From the IMG/VR virus record IMGVR_UViG_3300046783_000031: a stretch of 16,114 nucleotides of DNA; one strand, given 5' to 3'. The notes under the pieces are model-generated. The model was not told where the DNA came from. It worked only from the letters and a program-made list of their open reading frames with translations, and searched no databases. A program made the translations under genes and the position numbers. Positions 3,563 to 16,114 of this stretch are shown one piece after another. Position 1 is the stretch's first letter. The number at the start of each line of letters is the position of its first letter. The DNA is from a virus.

Positions 3563-3892
3563 TCACCCGACCCGGGGTACGGCCGGGCGGGGCCGCAGCA
3601 GTTGCTTCACCTGGGTCGACAACGGCCGTACGCGGATCGCGTAGTCGCCGTTGAAGCCGATGACCTCGCCGTCCCCCGACCTGGTCGCGGCGTAGTTGTC
3701 GCGGGCCTGGGCCAGCTGGCCCTGCCGGTACCGCTCAGGTACGACCGCTGCGTCTGGCAATGCGGGCGCGTACACGACCACCTGCTCGTAGGCGGACTGC
3801 AGAAACGCCGCGACGTCCTCGGGCGACAGCGTCACGGAGTCCGGCCACAGTCCCTCGATGCCTTCGGTGTCGACCCATCCGACCAGCGTCAC
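3563..3892 (-). CDS. Head-tail connector (gp6-like adaptor) protein (109 aa, GTG start)
   Basis: It lies immediately after the capsid gene, with a GGAGG RBS upstream. The sequence pattern (..FLQSAYEQVVVYAP..VPERYRQGQLAQARDNY..VKQLLRPR) is typical of phage head-tail connector proteins. Confidence 0.65.
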   Translation of the reverse strand: MTLVGWVDTEGIEGLWPDSVTLSPEDVAAFLQSAYEQVVVYAPALPDAAVVPERYRQGQLAQARDNYAATRSGDGEVIGFNGDYAIRVRPLSTQVKQLLRPRPAVPRVG

Positions 3893-3923
3893 CGCTCCAC
3901 CTCCGCCCTGTCATGTCGGCCTG

Positions 3924-3954
3924 CCGTGTCACCTGACGTGTCAGTGACACGTCA
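3924..3954. repeat. Dyad repeat family, copy A (spans the capsid stop codon and the capsid-connector intergenic region)
   Basis: CCGTGTCACCTGACGTGTCAGTGACACGTCA contains the 19-bp palindrome GACGTGTCA-G-TGACACGTC and the inverted 7-mers GTGTCAC/GTGACAC. Confidence 0.9.
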
Positions 3955-5580
3955 CCCCTTCTTGCGGCCCTCGTCGGCGTCGGCCTGGTCGTCCTGGGCG
4001 AAGGGGATGACCGGCGCGGTGGTGACCAGGGCCAGGCCGCGGGCGTCGTGGACGATCGTGCCGTCGTAGCCGAAGACGGCCTCGTCGACGGAGCCCACGG
4101 CGATGGCCTGGGCGTTGACACGGAGCGGGGAGCCGGGCAGTTCGTAGTGGGTGGACGCGGCCTTGATCCCGGCCATGAGCTGGCCGGCCGGGATGTTGGG
4201 GTGGGGCACGATCCGGAACCCGGCGAAGGCGCCTTCGGTCAGGCCCAGCGACTGGGTCAGGAAGGACAGGGCGTCGTCCTGGGTGGTGAAGGCCATGTCC
4301 CGCCACAGGTCCTTCGCGACCACGGCGAAGGACGGCGTGCCGTAGTCGACCAGCGCGAGGGCGGCGTCGACCAGCGCCGCCCACCCGGGGGCCTGCCCGG
4401 AGGGGACGCCGCCGGGGGTGACCGGGGCGGCCTCGGCGAGCAGCACGGCAAGGCAGTCCTCATCCGTCTCCTGGGCGTAGGACAGGTTCAGCATCCGCAG
4501 GTACGACGCGAGAACGCCGGCGTCGGGGAAGTCGAAGATGGCCCGGTCGAGCCGGTTGCCGCCGGCCCAGCGCTGCGCGGCCTCGTTCACGGGCGCCAGT
4601 GAAACCGGCGTGGAGTTGATCTCGGCGATCGCGCCGGGGTACTTGGCCACGGTGGGCTTCTCGACCCACCGGAAGCCCTCCAGCCGCAGCGACGTGAGTG
4701 GGGCGCTGGTGATCAGGGGAATGATCCGGCGGGTGTACTCGGCGGGGGACCACACCTCGCCCAGCCACTGGGGCTGGCTGGCGGCATCGACGTCGGCCGA
4801 GGTGACCGAGGTGGTCGCGTCACCGAACGCGGCGAACAACGTGTTCGCGGACTCCAGGCGGGCGAGGTCGGAGTGGTCGCCAGCCTTCAGCCGCACGATC
4901 GCGTGCATCGCCTGCATGAAGGTCAGCGGCTTGTCCGGCTGGCGCTTGCGGCTGGCTGCCAGCCGGGGAGCCGTCGCGACCGGCGCGGCGGTCTGGCCCT
5001 GGTCGTCGGGCTCCATGTCTTCCTCCGGTGTGTCAGTGGTGTCGGGGTCGTCTTCGTCGTCGTCGCTGGTCAGTGGGGGTGACACGGCGGGCGTGTCACC
5101 TGACGTGTCAGGCTGGTTGTCGGGTGATGTCGTGCCGTCGTCGGGTGCGTCCGGAAGCTCGGACGCGACCAGCCGCGCGGATGCGAACGCGGGGTCGACG
5201 ACGGCGCCGCCGCCGGAGACGCGGCCTCCGACCAGGCGCCCGGCCCGCACCACGGGGCCGTCGACCTCGACGGAGACGCCGGTGCGAACGCCTTCGGCGG
5301 CCTCCACCAACAGGTCGTCACCGGCGGTCGTAGCCAGAATGCGAACGGCGACATCCAGGCCGGCGGGTGACTCGGCGAGCTCGACCCCGATGCCCAGCGG
5401 CCGGTGCTTCTCGTGCTGGAGGTTCAGCACGAAGTCCTCGGCGGCGCACAGCTGCAGGCAGCCGGGGCCGGCGGTGACCTTCCCGACGTTGGTGTAGCCG
5501 GGCTCCCCGAACGGCAGCAGCCGGTACCGCAGGATCCTCGAGGCCTGGTCGGCGGCGAGCAGGGTGCCGTGGAGTCTCAT
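3952..5580 (-). CDS. Fused prohead protease - major capsid protein (542 aa)
   Basis: Start is ATG 5580 with a GAGGA RBS, 2 nt after the portal stop. The N-terminal ~150 aa has HK97-type prohead protease motifs (LNLQHEKHRPLG, GVRTGVSVEV). An acidic, Pro/Thr/Asp-rich linker follows (..SDDDEDDPDTTDTPEEDMEPDD..). The C-terminal ~330 aa resembles an HK97-fold capsid protein. No stop separates the domains. Confidence 0.8.
   Translation of the reverse strand: MRLHGTLLAADQASRILRYRLLPFGEPGYTNVGKVTAGPGCLQLCAAEDFVLNLQHEKHRPLGIGVELAESPAGLDVAVRILATTAGDDLLVEAAEGVRTGVSVEVDGPVVRAGRLVGGRVSGGGAVVDPAFASARLVASELPDAPDDGTTSPDNQPDTSGDTPAVSPPLTSDDDEDDPDTTDTPEEDMEPDDQGQTAAPVATAPRLAASRKRQPDKPLTFMQAMHAIVRLKAGDHSDLARLESANTLFAAFGDATTSVTSADVDAASQPQWLGEVWSPAEYTRRIIPLITSAPLTSLRLEGFRWVEKPTVAKYPGAIAEINSTPVSLAPVNEAAQRWAGGNRLDRAIFDFPDAGVLASYLRMLNLSYAQETDEDCLAVLLAEAAPVTPGGVPSGQAPGWAALVDAALALVDYGTPSFAVVAKDLWRDMAFTTQDDALSFLTQSLGLTEGAFAGFRIVPHPNIPAGQLMAGIKAASTHYELPGSPLRVNAQAIAVGSVDEAVFGYDGTIVHDARGLALVTTAPVIPFAQDDQADADEGRKKG
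5078..5111. repeat. Dyad repeat family, copy B (rearranged), inside the protease-capsid linker
   Basis: GGTGACAC ggcgggc GTGTCACC TGACGTGTCAG. Positions 5092-5111 are identical to 3925-3944. Confidence 0.85.
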
Positions 5581-5582
5581 GG

Positions 5583-6635
5583 TCAGTCCTCGGTCTGAGA
5601 GCCGGTGGCCGCGGCGAAGCGGCTGGTGTCGAACGCGATGCGGGTGGTCGTCGGGGTGATGTCGTCCTCGGACAGCCGGGCCGTGACCGCGGTGTGCCAC
5701 GGGATCAGCGCCTCGGACAGGGCGGTGGTCTCGGTGGCCTGGGTCTTGTACGTGAGCGTGGACGTCGCAAGCGAGGCGTTCGTGGTCGAGACCGGTAGGC
5801 CCATGTGTGAGGCGATGTCGACGGCCAGCTGGTTGCGGGCGGCGATCATCAGGTCGGACATCGACTGGCCGTGGATGATCGCCGTGACGTTGGACGGGGT
5901 GAACGCCACGGCGCCGTGCTTCGCGCGCCGCGCTATCGACCAGTTGTCGAGCAGTTCGTCGATCTCGGACTGCTCGAGGGTGTCGTCGGTGGTCTGGTGC
6001 AGCTCGACCAGCGGGGCGGGGGAGGCGACCCGCCCGGCCCACGTGGACTCCAGGTCGATCCCGGCGATGATCGTGCGGCGGCCGCGGGTCAGGACCCCGC
6101 CGGGGATCGGGCCGCTGAACAGGCAGACCTGATTGGCGGGCTCGACGGTGTCGGCGTTGACGAGGATCTGTCCGTCCGGGTCGATCTCCCACTCGTCGCG
6201 CTCGACGTAGCGGGCATCCAGGATCGCGTCGCGGGCGCCGCGGTAGATCCACCACAGCGCCCCGCCGTCGAAGATCAGGTCATCGAGAGTGGCTTGCATC
6301 CGCAGCCACGGCGATCCGAACGCGGATCGGTTCAGCCAGGCCGGCTGCGGCTCGATGCGGTCCTCGCCGCGGAAGGCCTCCAGGGCGAGGGTCGCGATCG
6401 CCTGGATCGCGTCGCGGCCCTTGGCCACCGGCGGCAGGGACAGGGCCTCGTCGCGGCCGCAGAGCGGGATGCCGCCGGGGAACAGCGCCGAGACCGAGAG
6501 GGTCTGCGTCGGCATGAACGGGCCGATGGGTGAGGCGACCTGGGGGTAGCGGGTCGGGTCGTGCGGGGTGACGTTCGAGGCCTCCAGCACGGCGGCCGCC
6601 GCCATGGCGTCACGAGCTCGGGTGAAGATCCCCAC
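5583..6635 (-). CDS. Portal protein (350 aa, GTG start; N-terminus uncertain)
   Basis: Position between the large terminase and the protease-capsid gene, plus size. An in-frame TAG upstream makes GTG 6635 the first possible start. No clear RBS is visible. Confidence 0.7.
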   Translation of the reverse strand: MGIFTRARDAMAAAAVLEASNVTPHDPTRYPQVASPIGPFMPTQTLSVSALFPGGIPLCGRDEALSLPPVAKGRDAIQAIATLALEAFRGEDRIEPQPAWLNRSAFGSPWLRMQATLDDLIFDGGALWWIYRGARDAILDARYVERDEWEIDPDGQILVNADTVEPANQVCLFSGPIPGGVLTRGRRTIIAGIDLESTWAGRVASPAPLVELHQTTDDTLEQSEIDELLDNWSIARRAKHGAVAFTPSNVTAIIHGQSMSDLMIAARNQLAVDIASHMGLPVSTTNASLATSTLTYKTQATETTALSEALIPWHTAVTARLSEDDITPTTTRIAFDTSRFAAATGSQTED

Positions 6636-6703: not shown

Positions 6704-8110
6704 CTACGTGCGGACCTGGATGCGGGTCTCGACCTTCGCCGGCAGCCGGTCGAACGCGGCCAGGGCCACGGTCCCGGCGATCAGCGGCGCGATCGCGGGG
6801 CCGCCGGCCTCGCGGTTCCAGACCCATCCGCCGTCGCGCATGTACCGCTTGGCGGCCGCGCCGATCGCGGTGGCCAGGTCGGGCTGGTCGACGTGCAGGA
6901 CGCGGCCGCCGTGCAGCTCGTCGAAGACCGGCGGGCAGGCGGCGATCATCTGCCGGGTGTTCAGCGGGTCCAGCCGCGGCCGCGGCCTGATCCGGGTCAG
7001 GGCCTCGGCAACCTGCAGGTTCTGCCCGATCGCGTCGTAGGAGATCGGCAGGTGCCGGCGGCGCGCGAGGTCACCGAGGAAGATCGGCAGCCACCCGGCG
7101 CCTGAGCGCAGGCCGAGCAGCTCCCACCAGGCGCGGCCGTCGCCGTCGCGCCAGGCGCCCATCACAGCCCCGTAGCTGCCGTCCAGGGCGACCTCGAAGG
7201 CCAGGCCGATCCGTTCTGGTCTGGACGGCGCCTCGGGGCGGCAGGCGGCCGCCCAGCCCCCGGCAGACAGCAGCCTGGTCGCGGCCGGGTCCTGCCACAG
7301 GCACAGGTACTCCTGCCCGAACAGCAGCCGGCCCAGCTTGCGCCGGCGCTCGCGCATCCGCTCGATGGTCGTCAGCGTGCCGATGCCGGGGTGCACCCGG
7401 TGCCAGACGGCCTCGTCGTCCGGGTCGTCGTCCTCGCGGGCGGCGTACTCGACGATGCCGATGTCGCCCTCGTGGCCGCGCTGCAGGGCGTCCCACAGCA
7501 TCCCGGCCTTCGCGCTCGGGGTGCCGGAGACGATCAGCTGCGGGTACGGGCTGGTGTCCAGGGTCGGGTCGATGCCGGCCTGGAGGTCCAGGACCACGGC
7601 CTCGTCCTCGAACTCCTGGGCCTCGTCGACCCACACACAATCAGCACCCTCCGAACGAAACTTGTCGCCCTTCGGCGCGACGACGTCCCACCGGGCACCG
7701 GTGGGTGCGTACTCCAGGCACTCACGCCCCGCCGCCTTCCACAGCGGCCACGTGTCCGGGTCCGCCTTGTGCAGCGGGATCGCCACGTCGAAGAACCGGG
7801 CTCGAGCCTTCAGGCCGGTCTGGGCGGTCGAGATGATTCCGTACCCCGGAATAGCCTTCATCCGCCCGACCAGCGTCGCCTGTATCGAGCTGGTCTTGCT
7901 GCAGCGGCGCGGCGCCACGATCACGACCTCGGCATAGTCGAGGATCCCGATTCCGTCACTCGCCGTAACCGAACTCGATCCGATGACGTCGGAGAACGCG
8001 AAGGCCTGGGGCAGCACTCTCTGATGCAGCGCCTCGACACCCGATATCAGCAGGTCACGGGCGGTATCGCGCCCCTCTACCGGACTGCTGTGGAGCGGCT
8101 CAGCACCCAT
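6704..8110 (-). CDS. terL: Terminase large subunit (468 aa)
   Basis: Walker A-like VVIVAPRRCSKTSS and Walker B-like ADCVWVDEAQEF motifs. The C-terminal half is nuclease-like. It lies upstream of the portal gene. Confidence 0.85.
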   Translation of the reverse strand: MGAEPLHSSPVEGRDTARDLLISGVEALHQRVLPQAFAFSDVIGSSSVTASDGIGILDYAEVVIVAPRRCSKTSSIQATLVGRMKAIPGYGIISTAQTGLKARARFFDVAIPLHKADPDTWPLWKAAGRECLEYAPTGARWDVVAPKGDKFRSEGADCVWVDEAQEFEDEAVVLDLQAGIDPTLDTSPYPQLIVSGTPSAKAGMLWDALQRGHEGDIGIVEYAAREDDDPDDEAVWHRVHPGIGTLTTIERMRERRRKLGRLLFGQEYLCLWQDPAATRLLSAGGWAAACRPEAPSRPERIGLAFEVALDGSYGAVMGAWRDGDGRAWWELLGLRSGAGWLPIFLGDLARRRHLPISYDAIGQNLQVAEALTRIRPRPRLDPLNTRQMIAACPPVFDELHGGRVLHVDQPDLATAIGAAAKRYMRDGGWVWNREAGGPAIAPLIAGTVALAAFDRLPAKVETRIQVRT

Positions 8111-8800: not shown

Positions 8801-9056
8801 TGAACTGTTTGCTTCGCTCGATCTGCTGCTCGAAGTGCCGGGCGAGGTCGAGCAGCTGCGCTCGGATCAGGCCCAGGGCCGCGGCGTACTGCTCAGGCGT
8901 CGCTGTGGCGTCGATGAGCAGCGGGTGGGCGACCATCAGCCCGCGCCCGTTCTCCAGGATCACGAGGCTGAGCAGGGGCGGCGGGTCGTCGATGAGGCGC
9001 TCGAGGTCGTGAAGGTGGGCCTCCACTCGCTTGCGGTCCATCGCTGGCGAGGTCAT
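8787..9056 (-). CDS. Hypothetical protein (89 aa)
   Basis: The ORF has high GC3 and overlaps the upstream gene as ATGA. No recognisable motif. Confidence 0.55.
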   Translation of the reverse strand: MTSPAMDRKRVEAHLHDLERLIDDPPPLLSLVILENGRGLMVAHPLLIDATATPEQYAAALGLIRAQLLDLARHFEQQIERSKQFSEPR

Positions 9057-9745
9057 GACCCGTCCCCTGATGCCCGCTTCCGGGTCTCGTACTCGGCCCT
9101 GAACGTGGGGGGTGGAACGGGCTGTTCAGCGGGCGTATCCCCAAGTTCTTTCCCGGGGTCTTGTGAGCGAAGCGAACTTAGACCTTTGGAAACCGAAGGT
9201 TTGTGCGGCGGCTGGCCGTGCATCGGTTCGCCGTGCATCGGTTCGCCGTGCATCGGTTCGCCGTGCATCGGTTCGCCGGGGCTCGGTAGGTCACGCACGG
9301 CGCCACCTGGACGTTTGGCCTCGCGGGTCGTCTCCTTGACGTATTTACGCAGGTCGCGCCGTGCGTGGAATTCCAACGCACGGTCATCGTCGAGGCTCTC
9401 GAGTTTCTGACGCAGCCAGGCCTGGGCGACGTCGTGCGGGATCGACTCCTCGGCCGTGATGGTGAAGGTCACCACGGCGCTCCGATCGCCCGGCAGGTTC
9501 TTGGTGATCTGATGCCTGTAGCCAGCCTCGCCAAGCTGTTTCAGGGCCTTGAGGACTGCCTGTTGGCCAAGCCCACGACCCAGGAACGCCCGGTAGCCCT
9601 GGGGTGCGGATTCTGGGCGCGCGAGTATGTCGGCGAGCAGGCCGAGCGCGGGATAGTCGAGGCGCTCGTCACGGATCGTCGCATTGGGCAGCTCAGTCGT
9701 ACCCCGCTTGTAGTGGAACGACGTCTGCGGCTTCCGCGCCGTCAT
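9053..9745 (-). CDS. Winged-helix DNA-binding protein, possible replication initiator (230 aa), with an internal GEPMH x4 repeat
   Basis: The N-terminal region (..LDYPALGLLADILARPES..QQAVLKALKQLGEAGYRHQ..) resembles DnaD/phage-replication-type winged-helix domains. It overlaps the upstream gene as ATGA. A repeat-bearing linker is followed by a basic C-terminus. Confidence 0.5.
   Translation of the reverse strand: MTARKPQTSFHYKRGTTELPNATIRDERLDYPALGLLADILARPESAPQGYRAFLGRGLGQQAVLKALKQLGEAGYRHQITKNLPGDRSAVVTFTITAEESIPHDVAQAWLRQKLESLDDDRALEFHARRDLRKYVKETTREAKRPGGAVRDLPSPGEPMHGEPMHGEPMHGEPMHGQPPHKPSVSKGLSSLRSQDPGKELGDTPAEQPVPPPTFRAEYETRKRASGDGS
9216..9275. repeat. Four perfect tandem copies of the 15-mer CCGTGCATCGGTTCG (iteron-like), in frame within CDS 9053-9745
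   Basis: Counted directly as 9216-9230, 9231-9245, 9246-9260 and 9261-9275. On the minus strand each copy encodes GEPMH. Confidence 0.95.
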
Positions 9746-9963
9746 GTCGCCGGCTCAGACAGCAGGGCAAGGACGTCAGTTCGGCGGTACCGGGGGTGAC
9801 GGCCAGGAGTGACGTAGCGGGTGATCCGCCCTTCCTGGCGCCACCGGTCGAAGGTACGTGGGGCGACGCGTAGGAGCGCCGCGGCCTCGCTGCGCGTGAT
9901 CCACTCGCCCTCAGACGTGACCGTTTGTGCAGGTGGTATCGCTTTGTGTGGGCTTGGGTCCAT
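9742..9963 (-). CDS. Excisionase/MerR-family HTH protein (73 aa), Cro- or Xis-like first gene of the leftward operon
   Basis: WITRSEAAALLRVAPRTFDRWRQEGRITRYVTPGRHPRYRRTDVLALL matches the excisionase-type helix-turn-helix pattern. It is divergent from the repressor. The ATG lies close to the predicted transcription start. Confidence 0.7.
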   Translation of the reverse strand: MDPSPHKAIPPAQTVTSEGEWITRSEAAALLRVAPRTFDRWRQEGRITRYVTPGRHPRYRRTDVLALLSEPAT

Positions 9964-9971
9964 GCTTGGCG

Positions 9972-10000
9972 AAGATATCCATGTATGGATATACGGTCAA
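9972..10000 (-). promoter_or_regulatory. Leftward promoter (-35 TTGACC, 17-bp spacer, -10 TATCTT) containing the 18-bp palindromic operator ATATCCAT-GT-ATGGATAT (9975-9992)
   Basis: Read on the minus strand, TTGACC is the complement of 9995-10000 and TATCTT the complement of 9972-9977. ATG 9963 lies about 8 nt downstream of the -10. The perfect 8+2+8 palindrome fills the spacer and overlaps the -10. Confidence 0.55.
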
Positions 10001-10032
10001 CTATGGCAGGCAGTAGTCATAGTTAGTCATGC

Positions 10033-10551
10033 GTGGCTAAGATGGACGGCATGCCAGCTGTCGCAAAGCAGGATCCAGTCGATGCCGAGATCGGCGAGCG
10101 CCTGCACACATGGATGTGGCGGAATCGGGTGCCTCAGACGGGCTTCGCCGATGTCCTGGGAATCAGTCAGCAGTCGCTGGGGCGCAAGCTGCGCGGCGAG
10201 TCTGCCTGGTCCGCCGGCGAGCTACGCCGGGCGGGCGTTGTGCTGCGGGTTTCGATCGGGTGGTTCTTCGGTGAGACCGAGGAAGAGCCTGTGCGCCCGA
10301 AGGGACTCGAACCCCTAACCTTCTGGATGGGAGTTTGGCGCTACCTTCGGGTCGCCCTCCCCGGACGGCGTCGACCTGGTGGACACAGGGCGCCCTGGGC
10401 TACCGGACAAGGCGGCGTCGTCCGCATCACGTGCCCTCGATGCGGTCGCACGAGCTACAACCCGAACGACGCGCGCGAGGGTTACTGCGGCAACTGCCAC
10501 GACTGGACCGGCGGCGCCGTCCGCACCAGTGACCTGGAGCTGGCGGCATGA
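10033..10551 (+). CDS. XRE/CI-type repressor, viral (unintegrated) form of 172 aa: N-terminal HTH, attP-encoded segment, zinc-ribbon tail ending -LELAA
   Basis: The HTH motif is QTGFADVLGISQQSLGRKLRGE. The frame is open from GTG 10033 (alternative ATGs at 10042 and 10051). CPRCG..CGNC forms a Cys4 motif. The stop overlaps the next ORF as ATGA. Confidence 0.7.
   Translation: MAKMDGMPAVAKQDPVDAEIGERLHTWMWRNRVPQTGFADVLGISQQSLGRKLRGESAWSAGELRRAGVVLRVSIGWFFGETEEEPVRPKGLEPLTFWMGVWRYLRVALPGRRRPGGHRAPWATGQGGVVRITCPRCGRTSYNPNDAREGYCGNCHDWTGGAVRTSDLELAA
10292..10333 (-). other. Candidate attP core: 3' portion of a tRNA (anticodon loop region to discriminator), no 5' half
   Basis: The reverse complement reads CTCCCAT CCAGA AGGTT AGGGG TTCGAGT CCCTT CGGGCGC A. 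These are the loop, 3' anticodon stem, variable loop, T-arm with the canonical TTCGAGT loop, 3' acceptor strand and discriminator. The upstream bases cannot pair as the 5' anticodon stem. A tyrosine integrase lies 620 bp away. The tRNA identity is unresolved: the acceptor and discriminator look Arg-like, while the loop would read CCC if it belongs to the tRNA. Confidence 0.65.
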
Positions 10552-10953: not shown

Positions 10954-11868
10954 ATGAAGACGATGCGGGAGCCCACCCCTACGTGGGCGCGAGAGATCGA
11001 CGGTTACCTGACGGCGTTGAAGGGCGCGGGCCGAAGCCCTGAGACCGTGAAGGCGCGGCGGCAGCAGCTGCGGATGCTGGCCCGGTGGGCCGGACGGCGC
11101 AGCCCTTGGAACCTGAGTACCGATGACCTGCTGGAGTGGATGGCCTCGAGGGACTGGGCACAGGAGCGCCGGCGCTCGGTGCGCTCGACGTTGCAGGGCT
11201 TCTACCGGTGGGGCGTCGGCTCGGGCCGCACCGAGCATGACCCGGCGCAGTCGCTGCCGATCATCCGGGCGGCGGTGCCGCGGCCGCGGCCGTGCGACGA
11301 CGACGTGCTGCGTTCGGCGGTCAAGGCCGCGCCGGAACGTGACGTGCTGATGGTGCGCCTGGCGGCCGAGTGTGGGCTGCGCCGTGCGGAGGTGTCCCAG
11401 ATCCACACCCGGGACGTGATCGCGGGCTCGAAGCGGGGCCAGTACTCGCTGGTGGTCCACGGCAAGGGCAACAAGGAGCGGGTGGTGCCGTTGCCGCCGA
11501 TCCTGGCGAAGGAGCTGCTGCGCCGGCCGCGGGGCTTCGTGTTCCCGGGCCGCATCGACGGGCACCTCTCGGCGCGGTGGGTCGGGAAGGTCGTGGGCGG
11601 GTGGCTCGACCAGGGGTACACGATGCACTCGCTTCGACACTGGTTCTCCACGGTCACCTACGAGGAGACCAACGACCTGCTGGGCCTGGGCGAGATCCTG
11701 GGGCACGCGAGCCCGGAGACGACGCGGCGGTACGTCAGGCTCAGTGATGTCCGGGGGCGAGGCCTAGTCGCGACAGCGTCGTCGCGGCTGCTCGCCCTCC
11801 AGGTCGAGCCCGACCAGGCACCTGCCATGTCACCGACACGTCGGGGTGACATCGCCGCGACGGCCTAG
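10954..11868 (+). CDS. int: Tyrosine integrase (304 aa)
   Basis: Catalytic motifs are present: ECGLRRAE (Arg I), HGKGNKERVVPLP (Lys), HSLRHWFST (His-x-x-Arg) and LGHASPETTRRYVRL (His, Tyr). The N-terminus has a SAM-like core-binding pattern (WAREIDGYLTALKGAGRSPETVKARRQQL). The 44 codons upstream in the track ORF overlap the previous gene and are not counted. Confidence 0.9.
   Translation: MKTMREPTPTWAREIDGYLTALKGAGRSPETVKARRQQLRMLARWAGRRSPWNLSTDDLLEWMASRDWAQERRRSVRSTLQGFYRWGVGSGRTEHDPAQSLPIIRAAVPRPRPCDDDVLRSAVKAAPERDVLMVRLAAECGLRRAEVSQIHTRDVIAGSKRGQYSLVVHGKGNKERVVPLPPILAKELLRRPRGFVFPGRIDGHLSARWVGKVVGGWLDQGYTMHSLRHWFSTVTYEETNDLLGLGEILGHASPETTRRYVRLSDVRGRGLVATASSRLLALQVEPDQAPAMSPTRRGDIAATA
11827..11852. 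repeat. Dyad repeat family, diverged copy D (ATGTCACC-N10-GGTGACAT) inside the int 3' end
   Basis: ATGTCACCGACACGTCGGGGTGACAT matches 23 of 28 positions, in the same reading frame, with 12189-12216 of copy C. Confidence 0.7.
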
Positions 11869-11945: not shown

Positions 11946-11983
11946 GGCCAGGGCCTTGCCCTCCGCTGGGGCAAGGCCCTGGC
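11946..11983. terminator. Perfect 16-bp stem / 6-nt loop hairpin, candidate bidirectional terminator between int and the tandem-HTH gene
   Basis: GGCCAGGGCCTTGCCC tccgct GGGCAAGGCCCTGGCC. It lies in the 155-bp lower-GC intergenic region. There is no U-tract, which is common in high-GC actinobacteria. Confidence 0.6.
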
Positions 11984-12023
11984 CCAGGGCCGAACCGATG
12001 CGAGTTCCATTCTGGAGGATCCC

Positions 12024-12431
12024 TTGAACGCTGCTCAGTACGCCGACCACGTCGGCGCGTCCGAGCGCACGGTGCTGCGCTGGTTGAAGGCCGGCGAGCT
12101 GCCGGCGGCGACGAAGACCCCGGACGGCCGGTGGTTCATCCCGGCCGACGCCGTCCGGCAGGTCCGCTCCTCACCCGTGTCACCTGACATGTCAGTGACA
12201 CGTCAGGGTGACGTGGTGCGGGCGAACGGTGCGGCTGCGCAGCCGGCCAGCCTGGGCGAGGCCCTCGACAGGCGCACGGCGCTGCTGTCGCTGGAGGACG
12301 CCTCGACGCTGCTGGGGATCCCGGAGAGCGCGATCCGGCGGCACGCCGAGCAGCTCGGGGCGTTGCCCTGGGGGCCACGAGGCACGCTGGTGGTCCCGGC
12401 GCGCACGGTACGGAACCTCGCCGGGCTCTAG
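12024..12431 (+). CDS. Tandem excisionase-type HTH protein (135 aa, TTG start), candidate Xis/recombination directionality factor or regulator
   Basis: A GGAGGA RBS lies 4 nt upstream of the TTG. There are two HTH_17-like modules (ASERTVLRWLKAGELPAATKTPDGRWFIPADAV and ASTLLGIPESAIRRHAEQLGALPWGPRGTLVVPARTV). Their linker is encoded by dyad repeat copy C. Confidence 0.6.
   Translation: MNAAQYADHVGASERTVLRWLKAGELPAATKTPDGRWFIPADAVRQVRSSPVSPDMSVTRQGDVVRANGAAAQPASLGEALDRRTALLSLEDASTLLGIPESAIRRHAEQLGALPWGPRGTLVVPARTVRNLAGL
12175..12205. repeat. Dyad repeat family, copy C
   Basis: CCGTGTCACCTGACATGTCAGTGACACGTCA is identical to copy A at 30 of 31 positions. Confidence 0.9.
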
Positions 12432-12556
12432 GAACGGCGCCTGCCGAACATCCAGCCGAGCAGCAGCCCGAAGATCCCGATCAGCACCCCGACGGTCATC
12501 GTCAGGCCGAGCACGAGCGTGACGGCGGCCGCGGCGGTCAGCTCCTCAGCGGACAT
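12428..12556 (-). CDS. Holin-like small membrane protein (42 aa)
   Basis: MSAEELTAAAAVTLVLGLTMTVGVLIGIFGLLLGWMFGRRRS has one long hydrophobic helix and a basic C-terminus. Its ATG shares one base with the endolysin stop (TGATG). The rest of track ORF 12428-12895 is a shadow of the endolysin gene. Confidence 0.55.
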   Translation of the reverse strand: MSAEELTAAAAVTLVLGLTMTVGVLIGIFGLLLGWMFGRRRS

Positions 12557-13512
12557 CAGTAGATCGTGACGCTGGCGCGGACCTCGGTGACCGAGACGGG
12601 CGCGGCGGGGTTGATCTGCAGGCGTAGCCATTCGCCGTCGGCCAGGGCGCCCTGGGCGCCGATCGTGAAGTGCTCGGTGCCGTCGTCCTCGACGGCGCCG
12701 CGCATGTCGATGTCGCGGCCGGTGTGGACGTCGTCGAGCTCGTGCCCGGTCTCCACGGCGCGCAGCATCACCGCGGCGCCGACCGGCGCGCGGACCAGGG
12801 TCACGGCGGCGTTGACGATGTAGCTGCAGGGGCCGGCCACGATCCCCCGCAGGGCGCCCTGGCCGGAGTCGTTGCGGACCCGCAGGACCGTCCACTCGTC
12901 GGCGGTGATCTCCTCAGCGACCGTGCACTTGCACTCGATGCGGTCCATGAAGCCCTCCTCGAGGACGCCGGCGAGCACCACGGCTCGTAGGTCGTCCATG
13001 TTCAGCGGGTCGGGGTCGACCTTCCGGCCGAATGCGTACTCCTTGTGGGCGCATAGCCAGTCGGCCAGCACGGTCGCGTCGCGGCGGATCCCCAGGGCGT
13101 CGGCCAGGGCGACCAGGCCGCGCAGCCCGTGCTGGCGTTGCCCGGTGGTCCACTGCTCGTTGGTGGTGTGGTCGGTCTCGATGCCGATGAAGTACCGGTT
13201 GCCGTCGTCCGGCGGGGTCTGACCCCACTGGCCCTCGCCCGCGTGGTTGGCGCGGCCGGCGGCGCAGATGTGCCAGGCGCCGTCGTAGTCGAGCCACAGC
13301 TGCGACAGGGGGCCGGGCAGCCCGGGCCGGCCGTTGATGATGACGTCGGCGCCGTGGCTGGTCTCGCCCTTCGGGGAGGCGTCGTGGTGCAGCATCAGCC
13401 CGCCGGGGGTGAAGGTCCCGTCCCGGCCGCGGCTCTGCCAGCCGGGCTCCTCGACGACGGGGACACCGGCGGCGCGTAGGACGTCGGCCAGGCCGAGCAG
13501 CATCAGGCTCAC
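12556..13512 (-). CDS. Endolysin, N-acetylmuramoyl-L-alanine amidase (Amidase_2/PGRP-type) with an uncharacterised C-terminal domain (318 aa, GTG start)
   Basis: Motifs LMLHHDAS, RANHAGEG, FIGIETDH and CAHKEYAFGRKVDP are typical of zinc amidase endolysins. It follows the tail genes with a GTGA overlap. Confidence 0.8.
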   Translation of the reverse strand: MSLMLLGLADVLRAAGVPVVEEPGWQSRGRDGTFTPGGLMLHHDASPKGETSHGADVIINGRPGLPGPLSQLWLDYDGAWHICAAGRANHAGEGQWGQTPPDDGNRYFIGIETDHTTNEQWTTGQRQHGLRGLVALADALGIRRDATVLADWLCAHKEYAFGRKVDPDPLNMDDLRAVVLAGVLEEGFMDRIECKCTVAEEITADEWTVLRVRNDSGQGALRGIVAGPCSYIVNAAVTLVRAPVGAAVMLRAVETGHELDDVHTGRDIDMRGAVEDDGTEHFTIGAQGALADGEWLRLQINPAAPVSVTEVRASVTIY

Positions 13513-14642: not shown

Positions 14643-15833
14643 TCAGCCTCCGATCGTGATGCCGGCGACGTTCTCCGGTAGGCGGGTCGTGATGGTCATG
14701 GAGCCGGCGTCGAGGTCGTACGTCACGGCGCTCACGAGCAGCCGTTCCTGGTCGCCGAGCGGGAGCTGGACGGTGACGGTGTCGGTCGGGCGCAGCCAGT
14801 ACGCCGAGACCGCGGACAGGCTCAGGGACCGGCCCAACGTGAGCCGCTTCGCGAGCAGGTCGCGCGCCATCCGGTTCAGCGCGGACTGCGGCGCGTAGGT
14901 CCGGATCCGGCGCTCGAGCTTCGCGACCACGGCGCCGACGTTGCCGACCGAGTACGGCCCGGAGCTCAGCCACGCCCTGCCCCACAGCGGGTCCTGGTCC
15001 TCCCAGGCGCCGGCGATCTTCTTGGCCCAGGCGACCTCGACGAGGACGGCGTTGGCCCAGTCCTCGCCCCGCTCCAGGGTCGTCGAGCTAGTAATAACCG
15101 TGCCGTTCTCGCCGACCTTCAGCTGGTGCGCGGCCTGCCCGGCGGCGGTGACGGGCTTCGTCGGCATGTGCCAGACCCCGTTGCCGTCGGCGTACAGCCA
15201 GGCTCCGACCAGGGCGGCGATGTCGGCGGCGACCTCCAGCGGCCGCGCGCCCTGCACGGGCAGCTGCGCGCCGTAGGCGTCGGCGCCGTCCCCGGACCAG
15301 CCGGCCTCGGGTGAGGCGTTGACGTAGTCCCAGCCGCCCGCATCAGGCACGGCGCCGACGGCCTTCAGGCATTCGTTCACCGCGGCGCGGGCCTCGGTCG
15401 CGGAGTTCCACGCCGTCTTGGTGGCGATGGTGACCAGCCCGGTCAGCTCGTACGAGCGCCCGGCTAGGTACTCCTCGCCCTCGATGTCGAGGTCGAGGGT
15501 GTCGTCGGGGCGCACGGTCGAGCGGGACACGAGCCAGCAGCGGGCCAGCAGGTGCACGTCGGTGGTGCCGTCCGGCAGCCGGTACCCGGCGTGGATCTCC
15601 ACGCGGACCTTCGCCCGGGGGTCGAGCCGGTCCAGGGTGGTCTGGTCGTCGGCGACCCGGGCGGTCAGGGTGCCCTGGACGTGCGGCCACCAGGACTCGT
15701 CGAACGTGATGGTGCAACGTTCCACCGTCAGCGGGATCGGCGCGGCCGCGGCGTCGTAGGCCAGCACGGCGTACTGCTGCGGCAGGGGGCCGCGGATCAG
15801 GGTCTCGATCAGCGGCGAGTACGCGCCGGTCAC
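14643..15833 (-). CDS. Minor tail protein, probable baseplate hub / Tal-like (396 aa, GTG start)
   Basis: It is the second gene after the tape measure. It overlaps the Dit-like gene as GTGA. Its size is typical of Tal N-terminal hub domains. This is a synteny-based call. Confidence 0.5.
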   Translation of the reverse strand: MTGAYSPLIETLIRGPLPQQYAVLAYDAAAAPIPLTVERCTITFDESWWPHVQGTLTARVADDQTTLDRLDPRAKVRVEIHAGYRLPDGTTDVHLLARCWLVSRSTVRPDDTLDLDIEGEEYLAGRSYELTGLVTIATKTAWNSATEARAAVNECLKAVGAVPDAGGWDYVNASPEAGWSGDGADAYGAQLPVQGARPLEVAADIAALVGAWLYADGNGVWHMPTKPVTAAGQAAHQLKVGENGTVITSSTTLERGEDWANAVLVEVAWAKKIAGAWEDQDPLWGRAWLSSGPYSVGNVGAVVAKLERRIRTYAPQSALNRMARDLLAKRLTLGRSLSLSAVSAYWLRPTDTVTVQLPLGDQERLLVSAVTYDLDAGSMTITTRLPENVAGITIGG

Positions 15834-16114
15834 GGTCCCACGACCAGGTCGCCGTAGGTCGGGAACGGCCCTTGCAGCGCGGCGTACGTGCCGTACGGGA
15901 CGAGGTCCTCGTACGTCCAGCCGGCGGTCGGGGCGAGGTTCCCGCTCGGGCGGGCGACCCGGTCGAACTGGACGGCCACGGTCCAGCGGCGCTCGGTGCG
16001 GCCGGTGGTCGTGCTGATCCGGGTGGTGTCGCCGTGGGTGAGGTCGGTGCCGGCCACGGTGAAGTACATGTCCAGGCTCAGCGGGTCGGAGTGGCGCAGC
16101 ATGAACACCTCGCC
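15830..16114 (-). CDS. C-terminal part of the Dit-like minor tail protein (same gene as 1-661; 15988-16114 duplicates 1-127)
   Basis: The frame runs to the window edge. The GTG shown as the start in the track (16108) is an internal Val codon of the junction-spanning ORF. Confidence 0.7.
   Translation of the reverse strand, partial: GEVFMLRHSDPLSLDMYFTVAGTDLTHGDTTRISTTTGRTERRWTVAVQFDRVARPSGNLAPTAGWTYEDLVPYGTYAALQGPFPTYGDLVVGP
15988..16114. repeat. Terminal overlap, copy 2 (identical to 1-127)
   Basis: Same comparison as copy 1. Confidence 0.9.

Follow-up and report, generated by a model that had tools for sequence, protein, structure and literature searches.

The 16,114-nucleotide IMG/VR virus record IMGVR_UViG_3300046783_000031 (hereafter the window, meaning the whole stretch of DNA analysed) is from a small temperate actinophage with a compact siphovirus-type gene set. 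It carries four phased arrays of a 10-bp near-palindrome, TGACRYGTCA (core GACRYGTC; R, purine; Y, pyrimidine). The motif is conserved in coding DNA, in non-coding DNA and in a gene read from the opposite strand, which argues for a function at the level of nucleic acid, and comparison with related genomes indicates that the constraint acts on DNA and not on the encoded peptide. With somewhat better than even confidence, we suggest that the arrays are binding sites of the phage's own 135-amino-acid protein with two helix-turn-helix (HTH) domains, here called the HTH-HTH protein (gene 12024-12431, plus strand).

The first-pass annotation of the window had described a repeat of ~30 bp in four copies. 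All four copies are present where it placed them, copies A (3924-3954) and C (12175-12205) agree at 30 of 31 positions (97% identical), and copy B has the 20-mer CGTGTCACCTGACGTGTCAG in common with A. However, the actual unit is the decamer, arranged in arrays. TGACRYGTCA occurs six times in the window against 0.12-0.14 expected, a count that none of 200 shuffles reaches, and the 29-mer common to A and C occurs twice against zero expected (200 shuffles). The flanking heptamers GTGTCAC/GTGACAC, proposed earlier as the measure of enrichment, are not enriched genome-wide (6 against 3.46 expected; 30 of 200 shuffles reach 6), and the palindrome reported as 19 bp is 21 bp long in A (TGACGTGTCA-G-TGACACGTCA, 3934-3954). 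An unbiased maximal-order Markov k-mer screen of the window did not single out the motif, whose signal is absorbed by sub-word counts.

Array units were called with at most two mismatches to the decamer. Across six genomes, the spacing between units is 11-13 bp in 30 of 37 cases, which is about one turn of DNA and places successive decamers on about one face of the helix. The number of units per array varies from two to four in the window and reaches five in the relative L094. Variable unit number at a period of about one helical turn is the pattern of phased repeats bound by HTH_17-type proteins. With the scan filter applied, full-length relatives have 2-4 arrays per genome, compared to 0.03 in shuffled genomes.

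Array A (3909-3954) consists of TGTCATGTCG at 3909, TGCCGTGTCA at 3922, TGACGTGTCA at 3934 and TGACACGTCA at 3945, spaced 13, 12 and 11 bp apart. The array falls in the non-coding gap that separates the capsid stop from the start of the head-to-tail adaptor gene (3892), and the TGA stop of the capsid gene (3954-3952, minus strand) is the first triplet of its last decamer. Array B (5080-5110; TGACACGGCG at 5080, GGGCGTGTCA at 5089 and TGACGTGTCA at 5101) is within the capsid fusion gene, in an acidic low-complexity linker past the N-terminal domain, where the minus strand reads PDTSGDT. Array C (12173-12218; ACCCGTGTCA at 12173, TGACATGTCA at 12185, TGACACGTCA at 12196 and TGACGTGGTG at 12209, with spacings of 12, 11 and 13 bp) is read in the HTH-HTH protein as the disordered linker (…VSPDMSVTRQGDV…) that joins its two domains. 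The degenerate array D (11823-11856; TGCCATGTCA at 11823, CGACACGTCG at 11834 and TGACATCGCC at 11847) occupies the 3' end of int and encodes the integrase tail (…AMSPTRRGDIAATA*); the HTH-HTH gene starts ~170 bp downstream. The peptides and reading frames previously assigned to these copies are correct.

Relatives were gathered by scanning IMG/VR with the motif and metagenomes with a TerL profile, and by exact-protein look-ups. They include a near-twin (L001, 98% identical) and L002, L080, L081, L005, L085/L094/L095 and L096, with segment DNA identities of ~65-85% to the window. At this identity the motif does sit at orthologous positions: the four array sites recur in the window, L080, L081, L005, L094/L085 and L096, and no half-site clusters occur outside them in the covered regions of these ~16-kb genomes. 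Array A, which has orthologues in these relatives and in L001, has the capsid stop codon within a decamer in six of six genomes. In-frame read-through of that stop into the array is not conserved across the six, so site A is truly non-coding. Orthologues of B are half-site clusters in L080, L081, L005, L094 and L096, formed by 9-bp repeats of CCTGACAC that encode PDT repeats in L080/L081 and by two copies of TGTCGTGTCA, 12 bp apart, in L094. Array D is kept at the int 3' end in L002, L080, L081, L005, L094 and L096. In every relative, both array-bearing fused genes stay single open reading frames (ORFs) through the arrays.

A lone decamer that the first-pass annotation had noted at 2729-2738 (TGACGTGTCA) fares differently. 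It is present and bridges the major tail stop (2738-2736) and the next gene start (2729), but among relatives it is common only to the 98%-identical L001 and is missing in L002 and L005, and no array at this position passed the scan filter in other relatives. Scamander, a phage considered below, has a site (6114) at the neighbouring tail terminator/major tail junction. The decamer at 2729-2738 may be a chance occurrence.

Distant phages of 44% GC (L088-L093), which like L085 were reached via a TerL alignment, have no decamers, and single-protein back-translation searches of viral contigs gave no further relatives. A two-decamer core scan of 596 Gb of genome contigs returned 72 scattered matches from many phyla, none related to the window by tblastx, so the motif is not a spreading host repeat. 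A 21-bp double decamer occurs several times per genome in Thermoanaerobaculia and Myxococcota (e.g., MFD10043.bin.2.76, Archangium, Vitiosangium; two adjacent copies in L036), and may be an unrelated repeat or regulator site.

The clearest sign of DNA-level constraint is in the HTH-HTH gene itself. When the gene's DNA is aligned across seven genomes, no 23-column stretch is better conserved than the motif core (18 of 23 columns invariant vs 39% gene-wide), which falls within the gene's most variable, indel-rich segment. The corresponding residues 55-74 have pLDDT <50 in the AlphaFold2 (AF2) model and are predicted to be a disordered linker. Stops in two of three frames per strand had been noted in the array, and they are indeed TGA in two frames on both strands. 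With a single frame open, any array within a gene must read CCT-GAC-RYG-TCA (P-D-x-S), as the coding arrays always do. The likeness of the Int tail (…SVTRQGDIAASA), the HTH linker (…SPDMSVTRQGDV) and, on the other strand, the capsid linker (PDTSGDT) follows from this. The codons involved are rare here (CCT is 6% of proline, TCA 9% of serine and ACA 2% of threonine codons), and a noticeable share of all CCT, TCA and ACA occurrences sits in the arrays. The earlier suggestion of a DNA- or RNA-level function is thus upheld by a core that is best conserved in a variable segment, by rare codons, and by a site A that is non-coding in six genomes.

So, what binds the arrays? The element encodes a winged-helix protein of the BldC/Xis/RacA fold. 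The HTH-HTH protein has an N-terminal HTH_17 (Xis/BldC-like) winged helix (PF12728, E = 1.1e-11), the disordered linker, and a second winged helix in the AF2 model. The top Foldseek neighbours of the N-terminal domain are BldC-DNA, mycobacteriophage Pukovnik Xis, RacA-DNA and RdfS, and by sequence the best-matching solved structure is RacA (E = 0.022). Nineteen family members come from metagenomes, and the helix RTVxRWL is invariant in a 17-member alignment. The C-terminal winged helix (12300-12431) comes in two types, …LGALPWGPR-GTLVVPAR… and …FAVEELGRAISTWRVPGR… (P0009, P0015), which do not follow N-terminal similarity, suggesting recombination at or near the linker array.

Full-length homologues, 29-33% identical, occur in 139 of 50,697 phage records (tblastn), all of them cluster EE-type phages of ~17 kb (138 Microbacterium phages and phiExGM16). 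Scamander has 10 copies of GACRYGTC vs 3.3 expected, a number reached in none of 300 simulations. The sites are at the gp2/TerL, TerL/portal, tail terminator/major tail, TAC/TMP (two copies 11 bp apart) and gp15/gp16 junctions; the core also occurs in gene 21, whose linker reads it as GAC-ACG-TCA, the frame used in array C, and a dense array is found directly upstream of the probable gene 21 start. The annotated start of gene 21 (15571) puts this dense GACATGTC/TGACA array (15505-15600) inside the ORF, whereas both the reach of the homology and an AGGAAGG…ATG at 15507 point to a shorter product, with the array as promoter/operator region. BonaeVitae, from a different genus, and phiExGM16 also have junction and upstream arrays. 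The dense array upstream of the homologous gene in Scamander and BonaeVitae is the positional counterpart of array D.

Small phages that are structurally closer or similar to the element (BlueFeather, Whytu and Decurro) lack both the HTH-HTH protein and the arrays. Conversely, the unrelated element L097, which encodes a 58% homologue, has, in the linker of the homologous gene, an array of four units (CGACATGTCG, 12-bp period) and no array elsewhere in its 9.3 kb. Present with the homologue and absent without it, the motif tracks the HTH-HTH gene and not the structural module or the immunity system. L097, a contig with two different integrases, also has two direct copies of GGTTGTGAGTTGCACAA at 4338-4385, downstream of the HTH-HTH homologue and upstream of a gene with an RHH domain; this pair is probably the operator of the RHH protein.

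These comparisons undercut the idea, raised in the first-pass annotation, that the linkers at the two domain fusions are former intergenic regions now read through. The capsid fusion also occurs in small actinophages without the motif (PMC7302621), and the HTH-HTH fusion with its linker motif can be seen already in the Scamander homologue, which is 33% identical. No split version of the HTH-HTH gene was found; Whytu gp15 and gp16, which are adjacent and MerR-like, are in the wrong order and only weakly similar. The same annotation had proposed binding sites for one of the element's HTH proteins, comparable in concept to stoperators. This is the best-supported reading, and, on sequence comparison, the candidate can be narrowed to the HTH-HTH protein.

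Several observations weigh against that assignment. The octamer GACRYGTC alone is not significantly enriched in the window family (7 vs 3.95 expected); the enrichment is confined to the decamer and the arrays. The Foldseek E-values are weak (~0.08), as expected for 50-residue domains, and the pTM of the whole model is 0.33. The link between protein and arrays is correlative and comes from two phage lineages and one odd contig (L097). BldC and Xis bind head-to-tail to direct repeats, but most units here are palindromic or inverted; sites A and B of L094 are direct repeats. A RacA-like inverted-repeat mode would fit the palindromic units better. The binder could be a host factor or a weakly conserved small HTH_17 protein. 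A hairpin past the capsid stop, described below with the RNA structures, also belongs on this side of the balance.

A different binder is an alternative that we consider unlikely, though it has real precedents. The candidates are the immunity repressor, the small HTH_17/Xis-like protein (9742-9963), the O-like protein (9053-9745) and a host factor. In phage BPs, dispersed operators of the repressor gp33 pair a palindrome with a degenerate partner, and the arm CGACAT resembles (T/C)GACA (PMC4557955). The element also shares the immunity design of BPs. Its attP core (10291-10325) falls within the repressor gene and corresponds, in reverse complement, to a tRNA 3' end (T-arm and acceptor stem). 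Over 35 bp the core matches exactly the 'immunity repressor' gene of Mycobacterium phage Cracklewink, where repressor and integrase are laid out in the same way, and two independently assembled contigs (L099 and L100) both begin within this core. The full-length repressor ends in …DLELAA, an ssrA-like tag. An attP in an ssrA-tagged repressor gene points to integration-dependent immunity as in BPs (PMC4557955). The integrase ends in …GDIAATA* (…GDIAASA* and …AATASA* in relatives), preceded by residues that array D encodes, and this C-terminus may be a degradation tag, by analogy with Int in integration-dependent immunity systems.

The repressor nevertheless makes a poor binder for the arrays. 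It is 55% identical in L080/L081/L005 and only 37% identical, and of another HTH family, in L095, while the motif is constant; the motif thus does not covary with the repressor, nor is it found at the early lytic promoter. The divergent region between rep and the small HTH_17 gene has an 18-bp palindrome, ATATCCAT-GT-ATGGATAT (9975-9992), that overlaps the only sigma70-like promoter of the window (TTGACC-17-TATCTT, minus strand, region 9972-10000) and is probably the P_R/O_R of the immunity repressor. Region 9964-10032 has no decamer, and the equivalent regions of relatives, which differ in sequence, are without decamer arrays. Moreover, lytic cluster EE phages have the motif yet no repressor or integrase (PMC7302621). 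The small HTH_17 protein gains some credit from the binding of phased repeats by Xis/Gp36-type HTH_17 proteins (PMC12266134), and there is a weak homologue in Scamander (gp24, 28% identical). However, it is 42% identical or undetectable by tblastn in relatives, and its recognition helix varies (APRTFDRWRQEG vs DRSWVLKLVREG in L095). As both the repressor and the small HTH_17 protein diverge while the motif stays constant, they fit less well than the HTH-HTH protein. A host factor would have to be common to different hosts yet unused by BlueFeather, Whytu and Decurro.

Arrays C and D were also considered as integrase arm sites or sites of a recombination directionality factor (RDF), around an attP between int and the HTH-HTH gene. 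This was rejected, as the tRNA-like core lies inside the repressor gene. Arm sites are expected within ~200 bp of attP; D is 1.5 kb and C 1.9 kb from the core, too far for such roles, and A and B are >5 kb away. A conserved CACAGATC..GAGATTAGGAG stretch is part of the leader of the HTH-HTH gene and is found in L097 as well.

Could the arrays act in RNA? Hairpins in polycistronic mRNA could serve as factor-independent terminators or attenuators, RNase processing sites or 3'-end stabilisers, for example raising capsid mRNA over that of downstream genes. The best case is site A, where the mRNA strand forms a 9-11-bp hairpin directly past the capsid stop in the window, L080 and L005, and an added RNA role is possible there. 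Hairpins of 6 bp are left in L094 and L096, the Scamander TAC/TMP site GACATGTCctaGACATGTC could form an 8-bp stem, and sites lie at gene ends or junctions. Hairpins, which the first-pass annotation had offered as its other option, are strong in three of five genomes, but other observations weaken that option. The z-scores at site A are -2.2 in the window and -2.8 in L080 but not significant in three of five genomes, and the 6-bp stems of L094 and L096 are in a changed register. In L094, sites A and B repeat the non-palindromic TGACACGACAC in direct orientation every 12 bp and offer no long stem, and site C of the window contains an A·C mismatch when read as mRNA. Neighbouring perfect units show no covariation at their central RY dinucleotides, which are complementary in just 8 of 17 pairs.

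Stem length and register vary, and stems conserved by compensatory change and U-tracts, the marks of structured RNAs and intrinsic terminators, are lacking at these sites. A terminator scan found no U-tract terminator at the array sites, and an Rfam search matched no family there. A hairpin needs no three or four units at helical-repeat spacing, and an RNA role is hard to fit to sites inside ORFs, upstream of the regulator gene and in the regulator's own linker. Overall, helical phasing, variable unit number and indifference to orientation fit a protein along one DNA face better than an RNA structure, and we regard an RNA element as improbable.

Still less probable is a selfish or recombinogenic micro-repeat, in which units spread by slippage or gene conversion to tolerant places and persist as neutral passengers or hotspots of module exchange, with no dedicated binder. 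Relatives do differ by whole units (VTRQ vs VTRQVTRQ; the PDT repeats of L080/L081), and coding sites are all in segments where any sequence is tolerated. The C-terminal types of the HTH-HTH protein are out of step with N-terminal similarity, which places a mosaic joint in or close to the linker, and the content of the D-C interval varies (a hairpin, an extra ORF, or ~280 bp). Against this, the four positions are kept at 65-85% DNA identity with no new insertions elsewhere, conservation of the core exceeds that of the functional coding DNA around it, and both the core and its position relative to the HTH-HTH gene persist to 33% protein identity.

Selection on the protein, with a peptide (SPDxS, PDTS or the TRQGD linker) or a rare-codon pause at domain boundaries conserved and the DNA likeness a by-product, could draw on the SPDxSVTRQ linker kept in the 17-member family alignment, on the similar peptide that ends Int and on the slowing of translation that rare codons could cause at domain boundaries, but it is most improbable, largely refuted by the non-coding copies (site A and all Scamander junction sites), and further opposed by the opposite-strand reading of site B, by the predicted disorder of the linker and by the retention of CCT and TCA where synonymous drift to the preferred CCG/CCC and TCC/TCG/AGC would be allowed.

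BPs is one of the closest known systems. Its gp33 binds the 12-bp palindrome CGACATATGTCG at five dispersed loci, O6, O27, OR, O55 and O61 (PMC4557955). Common features are a repressor gene that contains attP and ends in an ssrA-like tag, a small number of sites dispersed along the genome, a palindrome with degenerate neighbours and a similar arm (CGACAT vs (T/C)GACA), and sites at gene boundaries of the structural operon. However, the units of the window are 10 and not 12 bp long, their centres are 11-13 and not 17-20 bp apart, and there are up to four per array. Three of the four arrays are inside ORFs and none is at rep/P_R. The motif is also invariant while the repressor diverges, and it occurs in lytic phages without a repressor; the binder is therefore probably not the immunity repressor.

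The HTH-HTH protein has a different set of parallels. Multimers of BldC assemble head-to-tail on phased direct repeats whose number varies (PMC5859096), and Gp36 of D29, which is homologous to Xis, represses phage genes that lie downstream of its repeats (PMC12266134). BldC, Xis, RdfS and Gp36 belong to the PF12728 family and include the best structural matches of the N-terminal domain (PMC5859096, PMC12266134, PMC11963761). Variable repeat number and an ~11-bp period are likewise shared, and cooperative, filament-like binding is a property of those proteins. Unlike the HTH-HTH protein, with two winged helices per chain and mostly palindromic units, they are single-domain proteins on direct repeats, and recognition sequences differ (AATT-N4-C for BldC, AGGCGGC for Gp36). 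RacA of Bacillus subtilis binds clustered TGACGCCGGCGTCA inverted repeats via their TG/CA ends, which determine specificity, and clustering enhances binding (PMC4914108). The resemblance here extends to the MerR-like winged helix, the clustering of sites, and a ram site that starts with TGAC and ends with GTCA. However, the RacA site has a 6-bp GC centre in place of the 2-bp RY, and RacA is a chromosome-anchoring protein with a coiled-coil oligomerisation domain and no role in phage regulation.

Cluster A stoperators are asymmetric 13-bp single sites, bound by the immunity repressor and present in ~20-30 copies per genome. The element, in contrast, has few sites, each of them a phased multi-unit array, and several are within ORFs. 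Other dispersed actinophage motifs are the 18-mer of cluster EC, the inverted repeats of clusters EG and O, and the SAS of cluster K (PMC7302621). Like stoperators and these motifs, the arrays are short, scattered at gene boundaries and conserved within lineages, features that go with presumed or shown transcription control. The EC, EG, O and K motifs are a fixed distance upstream of starts, whereas distances from the arrays to start codons vary. In PMC7302621 the text on cluster EE makes no mention of a repeat, and the remaining papers found on this cluster are genome announcements. Dispersed regulatory motifs are thus already known to be common in actinophages, and array binding by Xis/BldC-type proteins is established. 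The motif itself, its pairing with a tandem winged-helix protein, its span of lytic and temperate phages and its embedding in ORFs appear, in the literature searched, to be undescribed.

What has been observed is the anatomy and phasing of the arrays, their orthologous conservation, their rare codons and their occurrence together with the HTH-HTH gene; the identity of the binder, its cooperativity and the sign of its effect are inferred. How might such a system work? By analogy with BldC, Xis, RacA and D29 Gp36, the HTH-HTH protein would load cooperatively along the phased decamers. Array D upstream of the gene and array C in its linker would provide autoregulation, possibly through a D-C loop. 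The array pair upstream of and within the regulator gene is common to both lineages, which suggests that autoregulation is the core function. Arrays A and B, and the junction sites of cluster EE phages, would then be lineage-specific late-operon arrays that modulate transcription at gene or domain boundaries, for example as roadblocks or architectural elements; either repression or activation would be compatible with this.

More tentatively, the HTH-HTH protein and the GACRYGTC arrays may form a previously undescribed regulatory module common to the lytic cluster EE Microbacterium phages and to temperate ~16-kb actinophages presently found only in metagenomes. The ancestral state could have been an autoregulatory pair of arrays, upstream and in the linker, with a cis-element that dictates the linker peptide, after which the arrays of the temperate lineage would also have spread into the capsid linker and the Int tail. 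Arrays that are ~350 bp (D-C) or ~1.15 kb (B-A) apart might be bridged by the two domains, and the resulting loops might gate transcription of the regulator and the capsid gene. We hold this fuller scheme to be less likely than the assignment of the arrays to the HTH-HTH protein.

The remainder of the element is in keeping with a small actinophage. Positions 1-127 of the window are an exact copy of 15988-16114, and this 127-bp terminal direct repeat indicates a circular or terminally redundant assembly of an element of ~15,987 bp. The window has 70% G+C. Its nearest cultured relatives are 15-17-kb actinophages with a capsid-protease fusion, the closest by capsid identity being Arthrobacter phage BlueFeather (44%; Whytu, 40%). 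Genes on the minus strand include those for the large terminase (6704-8110), the portal (5583-6635), the head-to-tail adaptor (start at 3892), the tail terminator and major tail protein (with the major tail stop and following start as given above), the tape measure protein (663-2261) and an amidase endolysin (12556-13512). The gene that carries array B and ends inside array A encodes a protease-scaffold-capsid fusion of ~544 amino acids, and such a fusion is a general trait of small actinophages (PMC7302621). This gene, called protease-capsid in the first-pass annotation, runs from 3952 to ~5586 on the minus strand (phrog_2263, E = 2.5e-56; PF25209; GC3 frame plot; gene calls on relatives), and the additional upstream part of the 767-amino-acid ORF overlaps the portal gene in a different frame.

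On the plus strand, the lysogeny block consists of the repressor-like HTH gene (10033-10551), the tyrosine integrase gene (10963-11868; PF00589; 301-amino-acid gene call on the near-identical contig L099) and the HTH-HTH gene. The last ~15 codons of the integrase gene are array D. The interval from int to the HTH-HTH gene contains, at 11946-11984, a perfect stem of 16 bp closed by a 6-nt loop (GGCCAGGGCCTTGCCC tccgct GGGCAAGGCCCTGGCC), within a ~95-bp segment that is missing from L080/L081 and has related sequence in L005; L094 and L096 have an extra ORF of 100-105 amino acids in its place. A separate repeat, five tandem copies of the 15-bp unit GTGCATCGGTTCGCC at 9203-9287, is within the minus-strand ORF 9053-9745, which encodes a phrog_1456 DNA-binding protein and is syntenic with the 'replication initiation O-like' gene of Decurro. 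These copies may be origin iterons in an initiator gene, analogous to those in lambda O.

The findings bear on how sequence is read in these phages. The arrays are a case of overlapping codes, in which a probable DNA-binding array with a single open frame is tolerated in disordered protein segments and fixes their amino acids and rare codons. Array-encoded linkers thus warn against taking conserved linker peptides as protein-level features. Should the two-domain protein bridge arrays, the binding repertoire of BldC, Xis and RacA would extend to a tandem-domain architecture. Actinophages of 15-17 kb are among the simplest tailed phages, and the timing of their gene expression is essentially unexplained. 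A conserved candidate regulator and its probable sites are testable in culture, in Scamander and other cluster EE phages on Microbacterium foliorum.

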